From Halodesulfurarchaeum sp. (GTDB lineage: Archaea; Halobacteriota; Halobacteria; Halobacteriales; Halobacteriaceae): a DNA stretch of 34,712 nt. Positions 15,631-22,721 of this stretch are shown piece by piece. Location: contig JBDGUI010000004.1 in the NCBI GenBank assembly GCA_042216015.1, positions 35,393-70,104 of the forward strand. Reading direction: 5' to 3'. Under the pieces are notes generated by a model. It saw nothing but the letters and a program-made list of their open reading frames with translations, made no database searches and was not told the DNA's origin. The translations under genes were made by a program, and so were the position numbers. Position 1 is the first letter of the stretch. Each line of letters starts with the position of its first letter.

Positions 15631-17754
15631 TCAGGAACTGGCACTCCACCCGGACAGCCTCGTGGTCGCAGTCGGTTCGAGTGCCTTGCGAACGTCCTCC
15701 TCCCGGACTCCGAGCGGCGAGAGGATCGACGCCGCGGCCCGGATCGCCCGATCGTGGTAGAAGCCCACGTCGTAGGTGTCGCCCGGCTCGTGGGCCAATC
15801 GGACCCGGTCCCGCGAGGATTTCTCGTCGTCGACCACGACGTAGTGGACGTCCTGGCCCGGGCTGACGTCGATCCCCTGCACGCGGGAGCGCTCGAGTGC
15901 GGCCACGTTTCGCGTGGACCGGGTGTATGCCTCGAGGGACTTCGAGACCCGGTTCGTGAGCCGGAGCCGATCCGGGTCGACCGTCCCCGTGGCGAGTTCG
16001 TCGAGCCACCGTCGGAGGGTCCGCAGGACCGGCTCCGGGGCCCGGTGCTCGTCGAGTGTCTCGAGCAGCGCGCGCTGGAGATCCCCGACCCACGCACAGG
16101 TCGAGCGCTGGCGCAGTTCGATCCCCCGGACCCTGTAGGGGTCCTCGCCCGGCGCCGGGTCGGTGCGGCGGCCGAAGTACTTCGTGAGCGCCCCTTCCTC
16201 GCCCTCCTTCGTCGGGACGAAGGCCACCCAGTCGTAGGCGGCCTCGTACTCCAGATCGATGTCGGTTTGCGCTGAGACGGTGGCCGCGATCTCCTCGAGT
16301 GGCCGCTGTGCGGCGTCCGCCCGTGGGGTCACCCAGATCGAATCCACGATGCCGTGGAGCACGCGATAGCCGCCCGCCTCGAGGTGGTCCTTGGCCGCGA
16401 GCAGGAGTCGCCGGGCGAAGGCGTTGATGGCCTCGTGGGCCTCGATCCGGCCGAACTTCGCGTTCGAGAAGCCCTGGTAGCCAAAGCAGGAGACGAGGAT
16501 CCACTTGAGCGCCTCCGAGCGCCCCGCCAACGCCGCGCGGCGGTCCGGATCGTCGGTCTCGCGGAGTTCGGCCTTGATCGCCTCGCGATCCGCGATCAGC
16601 GGCTCGAGGACGTCGGGGAGATAGCCCCGCTCCGCACAGATCTCGTAGTCAAGCCCGGGGACCGTCGTCGACTCCCGACAGTCCCCGCGGATCGTCTCCG
16701 GGGAGATGTTCCGGGTGACGATGATGTTCGGGTACATCGAGGCGAAGTCGAGTTCGTGGACGTCCTCGTGGAGGCCCACCTCGGGGGAGAGGGTCGTCCC
16801 GCCCCGATCGGCCGCCTGGAGCTGGGCCATCGTCTTGAATCGCTCGTGGCGCCACGAGCGCCAGGGCACGAGCACGTTCCGCCGGCGGGCCTCCCGGATC
16901 TGGATCGCGGTGAGGACGTTGCCGATGGAGGCCCACCCGAGTTCCTGGAGCGGCTTCCGGGATCGCTCGACCAAATCGAGGACGCCCGCGAGGTTCGTCC
17001 GGCTGTAGAAGAAGGTGTTCGAGCGGTCGATGATGGCCCGACCGGGGACGGCATACCGGGCCGGGGAGTGGCCCACCCGCCCGTAACTCTCGTAGGTGGA
17101 CTGACCCGCGAGCTGCCGATAGCCCGGCTTTCGCCCCACCGAGATCGGCTCGCGGTCGTGGTCGGCGGCCACGTCGAACAGCTGAGGGATCACGTCGGCG
17201 CTCGAGACCACGAGCACGTCCGGGTCGAGGGCCTGGAGCCGGTCGAGGACGGTTTCGAGCACGGCGAGCCGGTCGCCGGTGACCCGCTGGTCGCCGATGG
17301 TGGCCTCGCGGAAGCCGCTTTCCCCGGCCATTTCGGTCACCGGGACGTCGATCGAGAGCGTCTCGAGGTCCCGCTCCGGGACCGGCGAACGGCCCGTCTC
17401 GAGACAGTAGCGAAACTGCGGCGTGAAATCCACGTCGAAGAGCCGCAGCGTGCCGGGCCGGTCCATGTTCGCGATCTGCGGCGCGAGCGCGTCCACGCTC
17501 TCGACGTGGTCCACCTCGACGGCGAGGACCTCGCGGGCCTCGTGTCGCCAGCCCGGCCGCTTTTCGGCGACGGCGACCTTCGCGACGGTCGGGTGGGCCG
17601 CGAGGTTCTCGTGGACGCTCGCGAGCGCCTCCCGGTCCTCGCTGCCGACGTAGATGGTCGGCCGGTAGTCCGCATCGACCGTGGCCGTCGCGCCGTCGGC
17701 CGCTGCCGTCCACCGGCGGACGCGTCCGTCCTCGAGGAAATCGACGGTGAACAT
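15631..17754 (-). CDS. polB2: Family B DNA polymerase, PolB2 group
   Basis: Motif A LDFASMYPNII, motif B LKWILVSCFGYQG, motif C altered to HGIVDS, RGIELRQ; no recognisable intact exonuclease motifs. Confidence 0.9.
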   Translation of the reverse strand: MFTVDFLEDGRVRRWTAAADGATATVDADYRPTIYVGSEDREALASVHENLAAHPTVAKVAVAEKRPGWRHEAREVLAVEVDHVESVDALAPQIANMDRPGTLRLFDVDFTPQFRYCLETGRSPVPERDLETLSIDVPVTEMAGESGFREATIGDQRVTGDRLAVLETVLDRLQALDPDVLVVSSADVIPQLFDVAADHDREPISVGRKPGYRQLAGQSTYESYGRVGHSPARYAVPGRAIIDRSNTFFYSRTNLAGVLDLVERSRKPLQELGWASIGNVLTAIQIREARRRNVLVPWRSWRHERFKTMAQLQAADRGGTTLSPEVGLHEDVHELDFASMYPNIIVTRNISPETIRGDCRESTTVPGLDYEICAERGYLPDVLEPLIADREAIKAELRETDDPDRRAALAGRSEALKWILVSCFGYQGFSNAKFGRIEAHEAINAFARRLLLAAKDHLEAGGYRVLHGIVDSIWVTPRADAAQRPLEEIAATVSAQTDIDLEYEAAYDWVAFVPTKEGEEGALTKYFGRRTDPAPGEDPYRVRGIELRQRSTCAWVGDLQRALLETLDEHRAPEPVLRTLRRWLDELATGTVDPDRLRLTNRVSKSLEAYTRSTRNVAALERSRVQGIDVSPGQDVHYVVVDDEKSSRDRVRLAHEPGDTYDVGFYHDRAIRAAASILSPLGVREEDVRKALEPTATTRLSGWSASS

Positions 17755-18102
17755 TCACTCCCTCGCCCCGGATTCGGTCGGATCGACTTCCCCCTCACCG
17801 GCTGCCGCACTCCCGCCGGAAGCGGCAGCCGTTTCGGCGTCGACCAACGCCGCCTGGAGCGACTCGACCCGCTCCTCGAGTGCGCCGATCCGGCGCTCCT
17901 GCTCCAGACAGATCGAGAGGAGGACGGCGTCCATCGGATCGGACGGGTTCTGGAAGCCGCCCGCGTCGGCGTGGGCCCGGGCGTGCTCCCAGAGCCGGTC
18001 GAAGGGCTCGCGGTTTCGCCGCCGGAGCGTGTGACGGTAGTCGCCCCAGCGCTCCTCGAGGGTGCGGAGCCGATCGCGGTAGGTCGGGTTGGTGCGGCCC
18101 AT
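17755..18102 (-). CDS. Small helical PolB2-associated protein (arCOG07300-like), 115 aa
   Basis: Start ATG 18102 (MGRTNPTYRDRL...YRHTLRR...FDRLWEHARAHADAGG...LLSI). TGATG overlap with the upstream gene; its stop abuts the polB2 ATG. Confidence 0.82.
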   Translation of the reverse strand: MGRTNPTYRDRLRTLEERWGDYRHTLRRRNREPFDRLWEHARAHADAGGFQNPSDPMDAVLLSICLEQERRIGALEERVESLQAALVDAETAAASGGSAAAGEGEVDPTESGARE

Positions 18103-18776
18103 CAGGGACTCACCCGGGCTGTGGATCGTTGCGTTGCCCCCCTCTCGTGGAGCGGCCGTCGGGCCCCGAGGATCCGGGCCCAGTAGGCCAGGGTCGTCTG
18201 TACCGTGGACCCGCCCTCGGGATAGACCAGCGTCTCGAAATCCGCCCCCCGGAATCGCGGACCAAACGCCGTCCGCTCGACCTCGATGACGTCGGTCGCG
18301 AGCCGCTCGACCGGGGCGCTGAACGCGTCCGCGTCGGTCCGGGTCGCGAGGACGGGCAGCCCCTCCTCGCGGGCGTACCGGGCCAGCCGGGAGAGAGTCT
18401 GCAGGAGGAGCGTCTCGGGCTCGGCACCCCGGATGTCCTCGTCCCGGTAGCGGGCGTCGACGGCCGGGACGACGAGGAGCCCGGTTTCCGCTCCCAGTTC
18501 CGCTCCCGCGTTTTGGACCAGCGCCCGGTGCTGGGAGGCCGTGAACCCGCGGGCGATTCGAATGCGGTCGAGAACCCGCCTGGAGGGGGCGACCTCGGCG
18601 AGGTGGCTCGAGATCCCGTGGCCGTTCGCGTCGATCCAGACCGCCGACCCGCCCTCGAGGAGCAGGTGATCGAGCACGAGGGCATGCAGGGGGCCGACCG
18701 CTCGGCCGTCCGTTTCGAGGAGGTGGACCCCCTCGCACAACTGGGGCAGTTCGGGGATGGACCGGGAGTGCTGCAT
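18102..18776 (-). CDS. Degenerate RadA/RecA-fold protein (no Walker A; ImuA-like)
   Basis: AVWIDA, LDRIRIARGFTASQH and LLVVPAVD match the RecA core; no GKT; C-terminal FETLVYP...QTTLAYW. Confidence 0.75.
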   Translation of the reverse strand: MQHSRSIPELPQLCEGVHLLETDGRAVGPLHALVLDHLLLEGGSAVWIDANGHGISSHLAEVAPSRRVLDRIRIARGFTASQHRALVQNAGAELGAETGLLVVPAVDARYRDEDIRGAEPETLLLQTLSRLARYAREEGLPVLATRTDADAFSAPVERLATDVIEVERTAFGPRFRGADFETLVYPEGGSTVQTTLAYWARILGARRPLHERGATQRSTARVSP

Positions 18777-18841
18777 GGGTAATTCGAGGAGTCCCGACCG
18801 GAAAAAGCGGCCACGGACCCTTCCGACCCTTCCGGACCGGG

Positions 18842-19885
18842 TCAGTCCGGTCGCGGGGCGTCCTCCACGAGGCGGTACTCGCGGCGCTGGGCGGCCCCCG
18901 AGGCCGCGAGGAGGTCGTACTGCTCGAGCTTCCGGAGGTACTTCCGGACCGTCCGTCGCGAGCGCGGATCGTCCATCCGCTCGGCATACCGCTCGTAGAT
19001 CGCGCCCGGGCTGAGCGGCCCGGCCGCCGCGAGGAGCTCGTAGATCGCCCGCTGGTGGTCGTTCAGCCGCTCGAGGGTCGCCCGGCGCACGTCGTGGCTG
19101 GCCGCGTCGATCGCCCTCGTCACGTGGTCGGGCCCGATCCGCTCCGTGCCGTCCTCGACGGCTCGGCGGGCGGCGCCCTCGAGTGCGGCGATGGCGTCCC
19201 GAGCGTTGCCGTTCGCGGCCCGGGCGACGTCTCCGAGCAGGTCCGGTTCGATCACGTCGGGCTGGAGGCCGTATCTGGCCCGCTGTTCCAGGATCGGCTC
19301 GAGTTCCGCGGCCGTGTAGGGGGAGAACGTCACGTCGACGAAGGTGCGGAGCCGGGACTGGATCCGCTCGTCCAGTCCGGCCGTCACGCCGGCCCGGTCG
19401 TTCGCGGTCACGACGACCGCGAGGTCCCGCGTTTCGTAGAGGTCATAGAGCACCTCGGGATCGGCGAGCTGGTCGGCCTCGTCGAGGATCACGACGACCG
19501 GCGCCCCGATCTCCCGGAGGGCGTCCTGGAGCGCCGTCGCGGCGTGATCCCGGGCCCGCACCTGCTCCCCCTCGATAGCCTCGACGATCCGGTAGAGCAC
19601 TCGATACCGGGAGTGTTCGGACCAGCAGTTGACGACCGCGGTGTGCAATTCGCCGGCGTGGGCGGCGAGTCTCTCGAGGAGATAGCGGCTACTGCTCGTC
19701 TTGCCCGTCCCGGCGGGACCGGCGAGGAAGAGCCCCGGGGCGGGTTCGCCCTCGAGGATCGGCTCGAGCGCCGTCGCCATCGTGTCGAGTTCCCCGTCGC
19801 GGGAGTGAAAGTCGGCCGGGACCCACTCGGCGCCGAAGACCGCGCTGTCCGCGAAGATCGCGCCTCGATGGGACCGACGGAGCAT
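18842..19885 (-). CDS. cdc6: Orc1/Cdc6 family AAA+ ATPase with C-terminal wHTH
   Basis: GPAGTGKT, VNCW, VILDEADQL, RIQSRL, FSPYT, GNARDAI and wHTH RRTVRKYLRKLEQYDL. Confidence 0.92.
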   Translation of the reverse strand: MLRRSHRGAIFADSAVFGAEWVPADFHSRDGELDTMATALEPILEGEPAPGLFLAGPAGTGKTSSSRYLLERLAAHAGELHTAVVNCWSEHSRYRVLYRIVEAIEGEQVRARDHAATALQDALREIGAPVVVILDEADQLADPEVLYDLYETRDLAVVVTANDRAGVTAGLDERIQSRLRTFVDVTFSPYTAAELEPILEQRARYGLQPDVIEPDLLGDVARAANGNARDAIAALEGAARRAVEDGTERIGPDHVTRAIDAASHDVRRATLERLNDHQRAIYELLAAAGPLSPGAIYERYAERMDDPRSRRTVRKYLRKLEQYDLLAASGAAQRREYRLVEDAPRPD

Positions 19886-19931
19886 GATGGACCGTCGGAG
19901 ATCCTCGGCCTAAACCGACCGCCTACCGGGG

Positions 19932-19942
19932 TGAAAGTGAAA
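19932..19942 (-). promoter_or_regulatory. TTTCACTTTCA DNA-damage/UV-response-like motif upstream of orc1/cdc6
   Basis: Plus-strand tgaaagtgaaa, 47-57 bp upstream of ATG 19885 and upstream of a TTTAGG TATA-like element at about 19909-19914. Confidence 0.7.
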
Positions 19943-19975
19943 CTGCCCGGGCGCCGATCGCAGCCGGCTGCCCCG

Positions 19976-20926
19976 CTATTGCAACCCGGCGGGCGCCTCG
20001 CCGGGCAACTCCTCACGGTCGTGGGGCGCCTCGAAGTCGAGGTCGGGCCCCCGGGCGACGATCCGCTTGGGGTTGATCTGGGGGTGGGTCCGGTAGTAGT
20101 GCTCCTTGATGTGGGCCAGGTTCACCGTCTCGGGGACGCCGGGGAGCTGGTAGCTATCGCGGGTGTGGCCCCACAGGGTGGGATAGTCCCGGAGCTGGCT
20201 CACGTTGCACTTGAAGTGGGTGTGATAGACCGAGTCGAAGCGGACGAGGGTGGCAAAGAGCCGCAGGTCGGCGAGGGTCAGCCGGTCGCCCACGAGGTAT
20301 CGCTGCTCGGCGAGTCGCTCCTCCCAGCGGTCGAGCGCCGCGAAGAGGTCCTCGACCGCCTCGTCGTAGGCCGCCTGGGAGTCCGCGAAGCCGGCCCGGT
20401 AGACGCCGTTGTTGACCCCCTCATAGAGGTCTGAGACGACCCGGTCGATCTCCTCGCGCCGATCCTCCGGGTAGAGATCGACTGGCCCATCGCGGCGGGC
20501 GTCGAAGGCCGTCGCGAGCATGCGCATGATCTCGATCGACTCGTTGTTGACGATCGTCTCGGTCTCGCGGTCCCAGAGGACCGGCACCGTCGGCCGCTTC
20601 GAGAACCGCGAATCTGCGAGCTGGTAGACCTCCGCGAGGTAGTCGGTGCCGTTGACCGTGTCGGGGGTGCACCCGTCCTTCTCGGGGGTGAACTGCCAGC
20701 CCCGATCCTCGCGATACGGGTCGAGGACGTCCATCGAGATGACGTCCTCGAGCCCCAGCAACTTCCGCACGAGCACGGCCCCGTGGGCCCACGGACAGGC
20801 CCGCGAGATGTAGAGGTGATAGCGATCCGGCTCCGGCCGGAAGGTGGCCTCGGGGTCGTCCCGAATTTTGTCCCGGAAGACCGCCTCCTGGCGCTCGAAT
20901 CGGCCGACCTCGTCGGACTCGAACAT
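19976..20926 (-). CDS. Xi-class glutathione transferase / glutathionyl-hydroquinone reductase (YqjG-like)
   Basis: Start ATG 20926. YHLYISRACPWAH, TVPVLWD, IVNNES, NNGVYRAGFA, RFDSVYHTHFKCN, HIKEHYY. Confidence 0.92.
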   Translation of the reverse strand: MFESDEVGRFERQEAVFRDKIRDDPEATFRPEPDRYHLYISRACPWAHGAVLVRKLLGLEDVISMDVLDPYREDRGWQFTPEKDGCTPDTVNGTDYLAEVYQLADSRFSKRPTVPVLWDRETETIVNNESIEIMRMLATAFDARRDGPVDLYPEDRREEIDRVVSDLYEGVNNGVYRAGFADSQAAYDEAVEDLFAALDRWEERLAEQRYLVGDRLTLADLRLFATLVRFDSVYHTHFKCNVSQLRDYPTLWGHTRDSYQLPGVPETVNLAHIKEHYYRTHPQINPKRIVARGPDLDFEAPHDREELPGEAPAGLQ

Positions 20927-21060
20927 ACCGAGATATCGGCGTGCTGTCGTAAATAGGCGGCGTCGGCGGCAGTTCCATGGCGGTTTCGGATCGTTTGAGG
21001 AATGACCCCCATCCATCCATTCGCCGATCCTGGGGTGGAGTACCCTTCCAACTCGATTGC

Positions 21061-21132
21061 CGGATGCCAGAGAATCACCGGATGTCAGGGAATCACTCGA
21101 TGCCAGAGAATCACCGGATGTCAGGGAATCAC
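21061..21132. repeat. Tandem repeat, 4 x 18 bp (ABAB, 2 x 36 bp)
   Basis: cggatgccagagaatcac / cggatgtcagggaatcac / tcgatgccagagaatcac / cggatgtcagggaatcac; the last unit contains the lipoprotein stop codon. Confidence 0.9.
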
Positions 21133-21764
21133 CCCGAAGTCGGGTGCTGGATGCCGGCGAACATCGTGTCGACCCCGGCCTGCTCGGCCGTCATGACGGA
21201 GGGATGGACCGCGACCCCGATGACGTAATCCTCCCCGTGGGCGACCCGAACGAGATGGACGGTGACGTCGACCTCCCGGTCGGCAACCCGGGTCGTGGCC
21301 TCGAAGACCGAGACGGTCGCGTCCTCGCCGAGGACGGTCACTGTGCGGTTGTCACGAAACGCCACGTTCGAGAGCCCCCTCTGGGCCGTCGAGATCGTCC
21401 CGAGGAGCTGGCGCGGGCTCAGCTTCCCCACCGGGTTCACGGCCTGCCCGGCCACGATCATCTGGGGAGTCGCGACCACGACCACCGTCCCGACGGCGCC
21501 GGTGCTTTCCACCGAGCGGTTCCGTTCGTAGGTGGCGATCCAGTTGGTCGCTTCGATGGTCCGTTCCTGGCCGAGGGCCTCGACCGTCCGGCTGATCGAC
21601 TGGTTCTCCACGCCGCGGAGGTCGTACCGGGCCTCCTGCAGTGTGTCATTCGAAACGGTCGCCGCGTTGGCGCTGAATTCGAGCGTCTCTCCGGTGAGGA
21701 GCGCACACCCGCTCAGCGAGACGAGTGCCACGAGTGCCACGACTGCCAGTGTGCGTCGGTCCAT
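21129..21764 (-). CDS. Putative Tat lipoprotein (DUF6517-like)
   Basis: MDRRTLAVVALVALVSLSGC has twin Arg plus a lipobox; ATPQMIVAGQAVNPVG; HGEDYVIGVAVHP. Confidence 0.75.
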   Translation of the reverse strand: MDRRTLAVVALVALVSLSGCALLTGETLEFSANAATVSNDTLQEARYDLRGVENQSISRTVEALGQERTIEATNWIATYERNRSVESTGAVGTVVVVATPQMIVAGQAVNPVGKLSPRQLLGTISTAQRGLSNVAFRDNRTVTVLGEDATVSVFEATTRVADREVDVTVHLVRVAHGEDYVIGVAVHPSVMTAEQAGVDTMFAGIQHPTSG

Positions 21765-21815
21765 ACCACCCATTGGGTGTCCCGGTATCTTAACCTTCGT
21801 CCGGCAGCGACCGGG

Positions 21816-22721
21816 TCAATCGGCGGGCGAATCGGCCTCCTCGACCGGCTGCTCCCCGTCCGGCAGCGTCTCGCCCAGCCGGTCGAGCACCCGTCGGCCC
21901 TGCACCTCGTCGCCCAGGGCCCGGACCAGCGCGAGGGCCCGCCGGGTTCGGGTCCGGCGCCAGGAGGCCTCGCGGGCCTCGTAGGTCCGGATCGCCCGGA
22001 GGAAGTCGACCTTCGAGAACTCGGGCCAGTAGGGCGTACAGAAGAAGGCCGCGGCCTCGTTCCCGTTCGCATACCAGGGGAGGAAGTTGCTCGTCCGCTC
22101 GTCCCCTCCGGTCCGGACGATGAGGTCGACCTCCCGCATCGATCCGTGGTAGAGCCGGGATTCGACGGTGTCCACGTCGACCGTCGCGGGGTCGAGTTCG
22201 CCGGTGGCGACGTCGCGGGCCACCTCCCGGGTCACGTCGAGCAGGGCGGCCCGGCCGCCGTAGGCGATCGCGACATTGAGCGTCAAAGCGTCGTACTCGG
22301 CGGTCTGGCGCTGGGCGAAATCGATGGCCTCCTGCACCCGCTGGGGCATCCGGTGGGTCTGGCCGAGCACCCGGATGTGCACCTCCTCCTCGTGGACCCG
22401 GTCGCTGTCCGCGAACTCGGAGAGCTTCTCGGCGAGCAGGTCATAGAGGTGTTCTCGCTCCGCGGGGGGTCGGTCGAAGTTCTCCGTGGAGAAGGCATAG
22501 ATCGTCAGCTCCTCGATTCCCAGCTCGGCACACCACTCGAGGACGCGCTCGGTGGTCTTCGCGCCGGCCTCGTGACCCTCCTTCGGCGCGTCCCCCTGCT
22601 CGCGGGCGTAGCGACGGTTCCCGTCCTGGATGATCGCCACGTGGGTGGGCGCCCCCGAGATCTCCCGGCGGAGCAGTCCCTTGTAGATGGCCCGGAAGCT
22701 GCGGGTGACCCACTCTCGCAT
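21816..22721 (-). CDS. uppS: cis-prenyltransferase catalytic subunit (polyprenyl diphosphate synthase)
   Basis: Start ATG 22721. PTHVAIIQDGNRRYA, YAFSTENF, YGGR, DLIVRTGGDERTSNFLPW. Confidence 0.93.
   Translation of the reverse strand: MREWVTRSFRAIYKGLLRREISGAPTHVAIIQDGNRRYAREQGDAPKEGHEAGAKTTERVLEWCAELGIEELTIYAFSTENFDRPPAEREHLYDLLAEKLSEFADSDRVHEEEVHIRVLGQTHRMPQRVQEAIDFAQRQTAEYDALTLNVAIAYGGRAALLDVTREVARDVATGELDPATVDVDTVESRLYHGSMREVDLIVRTGGDERTSNFLPWYANGNEAAAFFCTPYWPEFSKVDFLRAIRTYEAREASWRRTRTRRALALVRALGDEVQGRRVLDRLGETLPDGEQPVEEADSPAD

Follow-up and report, generated by a model that had tools for sequence, protein, structure and literature searches.

A UV box before a short Orc1/Cdc6 paralog and a putative two-tier damage circuit in haloarchaea

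In a 34,712-nt stretch of DNA from Halodesulfurarchaeum sp. (hereafter the window), the promoter of a gene for a short Orc1/Cdc6 paralog (the short orc) carries an exact copy of the haloarchaeal UV box, TTTCACTTTCA, and the adjoining iRadA-PPB2-polB2 cassette carries a box of a different kind, hereafter the CGGAA box. Directly observed are both boxes, where they lie, how far they are conserved, and phylogenetic profiles that run opposite to each other. On these patterns, a two-tier damage circuit into which the UV box would wire the short orc is our slightly favoured reading. Statements on published work refer to the available portions of the papers cited.

Results

The UV box at the promoter of the short orc

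The promoter and its gene comprise the following features.

19932-19942, minus strand: UV box TTTCACTTTCA, 47-57 nt ahead of the ATG (19885) of the 347-aa Orc1/Cdc6 paralog
19932..19944, minus strand: UV box with its 5' AG; conserved core ACTTTCR
19911..19914, minus strand: orc-promoter TTTA, TATA-like, 17 nt past the UV box and 29 nt before the ATG
18842..19885, minus strand: short Orc1/Cdc6 paralog P0001, 347 aa; Pfam AAA_22 and Cdc6_lid; TIGR02928 183.9 bits versus a cut-off of 181.3

The minus strand of the promoter region reads cAGTTTCACTTTCAcc. The AG that precedes TTTCACTTTCA completes two tandem ANTTTC motifs (19944-19939 and 19938-19933). This arrangement, a perfect 11-mer 47-57 nt before the orc start with two tandem ANTTTC and a TATA-like element downstream, had been described in an earlier note on this DNA and was found as described. 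The TTTA is kept in the closest orthologs, and the gap between UV box and TATA element, 17 nt here, compares with 18 nt at radA in relatives. The orc transcript is probably leaderless.

In the window, TTTCACTTTCA is the sole match with at most one mismatch (0.12 in shuffles). The genome assembly (1.68 Mb, 86.6% complete, 64.5% GC) holds five exact and seven one-mismatch copies. With 0.12-0.15 exact copies expected under Markov models of orders 1, 3 and 5, the enrichment is about 35-fold, and a chance match was rejected (five exact copies against about 0.13 expected). The exact copies lie before this orc, as a tandem pair before a gene that we take, from its translated sequence, to be top6B, ahead of a small Cys-rich ORF, and where contig C34 ends. 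Three genomes of the same genus have a radA promoter that matches this end of C34 at 86-88%. The radA gene itself was not found in the 86.6%-complete assembly, where the radA promoter was recognised at the end of C34 only. The genome-wide scan that the earlier note had proposed thus returned the box at radA, where it was expected, and at top6B.

An ortholog of the short orc was present in 9 of 12 genomes of the genus, the other three being 57-80% complete. All nine orthologs are preceded by the tandem UV box (TTTCACTTTCA, or a form ending in -CG), which in the six closest stands at -57. For a wider sample, 91 loci were taken from the best-scoring members of the short-Orc clade among 300 genomes of the class, and 89 were kept after two without a start (L025 and L107) had been left out. 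Across these 89 promoters, 76 had a CGGAA-type box only, five a UV-type box only and eight neither (shuffles, 2.7 and 0.08). The five UV-type promoters were four of the same genus and L083; the 11-mer with at most one mismatch was found in four, all of the same genus. The CGGAA-type box was either a tandem repeat or a TTTCCGGAAA palindrome, positioned as the UV box is. Conservation of the motif before orthologous orc genes, another check put forward in the earlier note, therefore held in the genus (9/9) and mostly failed outside it, where the CGGAA box is usually found instead.

We consider it very likely that the UV box is a functional damage element at the orc promoter. The short orc is probably damage-induced, because the same box marks radA and top6B and precedes all nine orthologs in the genus; its predicted membership in the damage regulon is well supported.

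Three side observations concern these loci. The UV-type box of L083, and perhaps that of L006, seem to be separate instances of such a box before a short orc. A subclade of 342-aa short Orcs (L068-L116) is highly conserved, often plasmid-borne and scattered over families, and its promoters carry the palindromic TTTCCGGAAA in place of the tandem repeat. Finally, one genome of the same genus has a second orc-iRadA copy (L153, G010:C1:1203035-1205488), in which the match to Orc is limited to the C-terminal 104 aa; the copy lies directly behind direct repeats with variable spacers that resemble a CRISPR array.

The CGGAA box and the polB2 cassette

Downstream of the short orc, the window contains the following features.

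18818..18834, minus strand: CGGAA box, tandem CGGAAGGGTCGGAAGGG; begins 58 nt ahead of the iRadA start and is the predicted short-Orc site
18800..18807, minus strand: TATA-like T-run of the iRadA-polB2 promoter
18102..18776, minus strand: 224-aa ORF, iRadA (inactive RadA-like protein) of the PolB2 cassette, labelled by position
17755..18102, minus strand: 115-aa ORF, PPB2/arCOG07300, labelled by position; its ATG overlaps the iRadA stop
15631..17754, minus strand: 707-aa B-family DNA polymerase, taken to be PolB2 from its cassette; Pfam DNA_pol_B; NF004418 1022 bits versus a cut-off of 692

The three genes are co-oriented, the last encodes a B-family polymerase, and the orc adjoins them. The 224-aa and 115-aa ORFs had no match in NCBIfam, and the names iRadA and PPB2 come from position, order, size and co-occurrence. 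A 410-aa ORF at 17755-18987 was rejected as a frame artefact across two real genes. The space between orc and iRadA is 65 nt long and holds the CGGAA box followed by the T-run; the space upstream of orc is about 90 nt.

Within the genus, the CGGAA box precedes iRadA in all eight visible cases. Two loci of the genus have the genes head-to-head with separate promoters, the UV box being on the orc side and the CGGAA box on the iRadA side. Promoters of 82 iRadA loci were then compared, the short-Orc clade being scored as present at a best E value of 1e-60 or below and as absent at 1e-32 or above. The 54 loci from genomes with the clade had the CGGAA box only in 42 cases, both boxes in one, the UV box only in five and neither in six, versus no CGGAA box, 17 UV boxes and five promoters with neither among the 22 loci from genomes without it; these genomes are related, so that the counts overstate independence, and motif patterns and E-value cut-offs were tuned with the data already in view. 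The six intermediate loci had four UV boxes and two promoters with neither. A looser CGGAA pattern, expected by chance in 15.6 of the 82 loci and tightened afterwards, gave two CGGAA-only and five double promoters in the 22 loci without the clade. Two of the five box-less loci in Orc-less genomes have another, distant orc beside the cassette. The UV-type iRadA promoters are scattered over three separate parts of the iRadA tree.

A GGAAGG variant of the CGGAA box is common to the genus and to G113, whose Orc forms the sister branch, and also occurs at iRadA copies not linked to an orc (L125, L152). On the other side, the sister orc of G113 has neither box. The co-occurrence of clade and CGGAA box, the helix and wing residues that P0001 shares with its clade and the action of the related SNJ2 Orf8 (both below) argue for the short Orc as the reader of the CGGAA box, a pairing that we regard as quite likely.

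The short Orc and its clade

P0001 has intact Walker A (at 56), Walker B (133), arginine finger (174) and sensor 2 (226) motifs, and its winged-helix recognition stretch spans residues 307-316. Residues R311, R314, K319 and Y323, in helix and wing, are kept in P0001 and invariant in 23 of 23 aligned clade members. At the column of the Orc1-2 recognition-helix threonine (T356 of S. islandicus Orc1-2), P0001 has an arginine, as does the Orc1 of the genome. This threonine is conserved in Orc1-2 and absent in initiators, A. pernix ORC2 being an Orc1-2 homolog (PMC12490963).

The clade is neither core nor single-copy: over the 300 genomes of the class, scores were bimodal and multiple copies occurred. 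It was found in 121 plasmid records and was not found in 10 of 10 genomes that were rechecked with all candidates scored. In a tree of 91 rows made with a quick method, the branch of this genus's short Orc is long (0.5-0.8). SNJ2 Orf8 (336 aa) is 30% identical to P0001 and groups with the clade as its sister (98% SH-like).

The UV box in genomes without the short-Orc clade

In 30 genomes searched, 29 radA promoters were retrieved, of which 19 had the exact box, six a box with one mismatch, two with two mismatches and two none. For the genomes chosen as lacking the clade (n=25), the corresponding numbers were 15, six, two and two, so that 21 of 25 were within one mismatch. Two genomes with no clade member after all candidates had been scored (G080 and G165) contain 11 and four exact 11-mers, which precede radA among other genes; two of the other box-headed genes are presumably rpa and mre11. 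The UV box is thus not dependent on the short-Orc clade.

The window's Orc was rejected as the general reader of the UV box because the box persists at radA in clade-lacking genomes. ANTTTC is present at P0001's own promoter, but across the clade sample the 11-mer occurs at just 4 of 89. The suggestion of the earlier note that this Orc binds the motif found no support, given this persistence, the CGGAA box at clade promoters outside the genus and the missing helix threonine.

A conserved second Orc as candidate reader of the UV box

Two other Orcs are encoded in the genome, an origin-type Orc1 and a 372-aa paralog, L204 (G000:C13:40946-42061), called here the core Orc. L204 is conserved in 24 of 26 other halophile genomes at 63-89% identity; elsewhere in the phylum, many genomes have it at about 50%. 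It scores over the cut-off on NF001626 and NF001624 and below it on NF001623 (125 bits versus 311). Its similarity to Orc1-1 structures (E values 4e-39 and 8e-36) compares with 1e-16 to A. pernix ORC2. In the alignment, the GYTRY of its recognition helix falls on the GYTQY of A. pernix ORC2 (1W5S), and GYT is kept in relatives; rows L316 and L308 were excluded from the core-Orc helix and promoter comparison. Two halobacterial Orcs are reported as core, one of them in the Orc1-2 cluster, and the rest as a mobile shell (PMC3914693). Because L204 is overall nearer to Orc1-1 and below the NF001623 cut-off, its putative orthology to Orc1-2 relies on that report and one helix motif.

Beyond the halophiles, ACTTTCR was sought within 260 nt upstream of radA in 60 of 134 genomes, hand-picked across families. 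It was present in 32 of 37 genomes with a core Orc, in none of three intermediate ones and in 3 of 20 without it (shuffles, 1.0 and 0.55; reverse strand, 0). By family, the radA box was present in 14 of the 15 with a core Orc; the genomes are related here too, so that these counts are not independent. The full 11-mer with up to two mismatches had separated the phylum groups poorly (12/35 versus 1/20), and the seven-base core was used subsequently, with a cut-off moved from 1e-85 to 1e-75.

Exceptions were of both kinds. Among the three box-positive genomes without a core Orc, one has its box at -253, and the other two are G310, whose Orc passes NF001623 and has a GYTQF helix, and G329, with a match similar to that of G310. 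Conversely, the box is missing at radA in five of the 37 core-Orc genomes, and several genomes with a YT helix have no box (G330, G353, G358, G363). The promoter of the core Orc itself had ACTTTCR in 2 of 16 windows, one of them mis-cut. None was visible at the core-Orc promoter of this genome, unlike at the autoregulated orc1-2 of Sulfolobus.

In two halophiles of family f3 without a core Orc (G003, G026), the box is missing at radA, and neither genome contains an exact 11-mer.

The invariant core of the UV box across Halobacteriota is ACTTTCR, an ANTTTC. We find it fairly probable that the core Orc, as an Orc1-2-type protein, reads the UV box; their relation was observed as co-occurrence, and binding is a prediction. 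The link between crenarchaeal and haloarchaeal damage regulons drawn in the earlier note gains support from this shared core. Its route is another matter: it would not run through the window's Orc, and most likely runs through the other non-origin Orc.

As a separate observation, the G003/G026 lineage yielded neither a core nor a short Orc, no iRadA cassette and no UV box, and its damage response must be wired differently. A 33% match in the two genomes was rejected as a diverged core Orc, since it is the origin Orc1.

Discussion

A putative circuit and its rivals

Damage induction, the pairing of each protein with its box, and activation rather than repression are what we infer from the above. 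In the circuit that we slightly favour, damage would activate the core Orc1-2-type protein, which would bind ACTTTCR, some 17-22 nt ahead of the TATA element, at radA, at top6B and, in this genus, at the short orc. Through its UV box the short orc would be switched on, and its product would in turn activate the iRadA-PPB2-polB2 cassette from the CGGAA promoter. In most haloarchaea, where the CGGAA box also stands at the short orc's own promoter, orc and cassette may form a self-contained, likely autoregulated, mobile unit; in this genus, the orc promoter instead has the host UV box in that position. Elsewhere, the cassette may be wired directly under the UV box with no short Orc.

We extend this picture only tentatively, our belief falling slightly on the doubtful side. 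Halobacteriota, that is halophiles and related methanogens, would share with Sulfolobales an SOS-like regulon with an ANTTTC-type box read by an ancient Orc1-2 paralog (Halobacterium Orc6 type). The mobile short-Orc family would be a second tier, gating the mutagenic polB2 cassette through its own CGGAA box, and promoters would have switched boxes repeatedly.

Two rival readings concern the reader of the UV box. It might be a non-Orc factor (an HTH regulator or an alternative TFB), the two tiers otherwise being as proposed and the co-occurrence with the core Orc reflecting shared history. Consistent with this, the core-Orc promoter is mostly without the box (2/16), exceptions to the pairing run both ways, and losses cluster in few families, so that independent events are few. 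We nevertheless think it unlikely, since the core of the box is the ANTTTC footprinted by Sulfolobus Orc1-2, the Orc1-2 helix threonine is kept in the core Orc, the box occurs in 14 of 15 core-Orc families, the box-positive exception G310 has an NF001623-passing Orc with a GYTQF helix, and one halophile lineage lacks both box and core Orc. The other candidate reader is the window's Orc, which would bind TTTCACTTTCA, autoregulate and be the haloarchaeal Orc1-2. The box at its own promoter in 9/9 genus orthologs is as one would expect, and the long branch (0.5-0.8) leaves room for a local change of specificity; yet the idea is very improbable in view of the box within one mismatch at radA in 21 of 25 clade-lacking genomes, the 11 and four exact copies in G080 and G165, which have no clade member, and the 11-mer at merely 4 of 89 clade promoters. 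In addition, P0001 lacks the helix threonine, keeps the clade-invariant helix residues and retains the CGGAA box downstream.

The action of the short Orc on the CGGAA box could also be of the opposite sign, with a repressor relieved upon damage as LexA is, or the box could be read by another cassette-linked factor. Bacterial polB2 has lexA where orc stands here (PMC4104785, PMC11791011), which is the attraction of this proposal. Against it, the CGGAA box is placed as an activator site would be, about 11 nt ahead of the TATA element, the related Orf8 of SNJ2 is an activator (PMC10123103), and a damage-induced repressor would work against induction of the cassette; we hold it to be improbable. 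Least credible of all, to the point of being close to negligible, is the view of both motifs as origin recognition boxes, belonging to a small replication origin beside an initiator Orc. They do adjoin an orc gene, and GGAAA is found in haloarchaeal ORB-like elements (PMC3528665), but the intergenic spaces are merely about 90 and 65 nt, and each box is found at constant spacing from a TATA element, and again at promoters that have no orc close by. The interval 17001-22000 (GC 0.62-0.77) had neither an ORB match nor an AT-rich tract. The origin reading was rejected for this want of origin features near P0001.

Relation to known systems

Three elements were known from publications: the UV box, the regulon of DDRE and Orc1-2, and the linkage of orc to polB2. 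In Halobacterium NRC-1, the motif TTTCACTTTCA precedes radA1, top6B, vng17 and vng280 (Boubriak 2008, PMC2556686), and the earlier note was right that it lies before UV-induced genes, radA included. The available text of that paper names no binder and has no occurrence of 'orc' or 'cdc6'. NRC-1 and the present genome agree in the 11-mer, letter for letter, in its place about 50 nt ahead of the start with a TATA element behind it, and in the targets radA and top6B; here, however, the box heads an orc gene, in many other haloarchaea it heads the polB2 cassette, and the conserved core shrinks to ACTTTCR.

The earlier note had also correctly named ANTTTC as the damage-responsive element tied to Orc1-2 in Sulfolobus (PMC6061795). 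The Sulfolobales regulon resembles the present one in three respects, namely an ANTTTC core ahead of the promoter, regulation (here predicted) by an Orc that is not an initiator, and a polB2/dpo2 target (PMC6061795, PMC9738581, PMC12490963), and the methanogen form of the box, AATACTTTCA, resembles the Sulfolobales consensus AATAGTTTCRG. Unlike the Sulfolobales Orc1-2, the window's Orc lacks the helix threonine, is patchy and is often plasmid-borne, control of polB2 here appears to go through a second Orc and a second box, and the promoter of the candidate haloarchaeal Orc1-2 itself mostly has no box. Whether damage genes are regulated by Orc1-2 proteins outside Sulfolobales was a question raised by Sun et al. 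(2018). A term search of PMC5817253 found no mention of Halobacterium.

The arORC2-iRadA-arCOG07300/PPB2-polB2 neighbourhood of euryarchaea, and with it the link between orc and polB2, has been published (PMC4104785, PMC11791011, PMC1906834), with the same gene set and order as here. Its available descriptions contain no promoter boxes, whereas the present loci have a cassette-specific CGGAA box that is exchanged with the UV box. For this neighbourhood, a role in replication (Makarova 2014) and one in regulation (a 2025 paper) have been suggested. The promoter that directly follows SNJ2 orf8 depends on Orf8 for its activation after mitomycin C, a function that host Orcs cannot take over (PMC10123103). 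Orf8 thus shares with our proposal that a short haloarchaeal Orc activates the next downstream promoter after DNA damage, and differs in that the switch under its control is viral and that Orf8 itself is not induced (PMC10123103). The SNJ2 P7 promoter (L151:3511-3653) has TTCCGTTC repeats and not the tandem CGGAA box; one repeat lies about 12 nt before a TATA-like element, and the repeats are a candidate Orf8 site. In H. volcanii, Orc14 has been proposed as a possible non-initiator, without these boxes in the available account (PMC12890983).

Among the papers searched, mostly open-access ones, none was found to name the binder of the UV box, to describe the CGGAA box or to connect the two motifs. 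If the circuit is real, the UV-box factor left unnamed in 2008 would come down to one specific non-essential protein, the core Orc: an orc6 knockout has been reported as viable (PMC1906834), and we infer that L204 is the Orc6 counterpart. For the extra Orc paralogs of haloarchaea, a large clade of patchy distribution, it would suggest a site to bind and a likely role, the local regulation of the polB2 damage-tolerance cassette. The outcome would be a regulatory cascade of Orc paralogs, each with a box of its own, and with an error-prone polymerase in the cassette.

Additional observations

Very small Cys-rich (zinc-ribbon-like) ORFs of 48-96 aa were repeatedly found behind a UV box in several haloarchaea (C1:92317 and C5:54773 of this genome; L229, L239, L228, L222, L225 and L227). 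They are probably further members of the regulon, with no function assigned. At C32:10891 (minus strand) of this genome, a core box with TATA spacing lies ahead of an unnamed 509-aa ORF, a possible extra member.

A top6B-like gene begins on each of contigs C26 and C36; the promoter box is the same and the N-termini are nearly identical. The two genes diverge past the start of apparently different inteins, which may reflect strain mixing or intein polymorphism. The radA leaders of family f12 (L242-L247) have two copies of GTGCAC in the stretch that leads from the TATA element to the start of radA, which suggests the site of another regulator.
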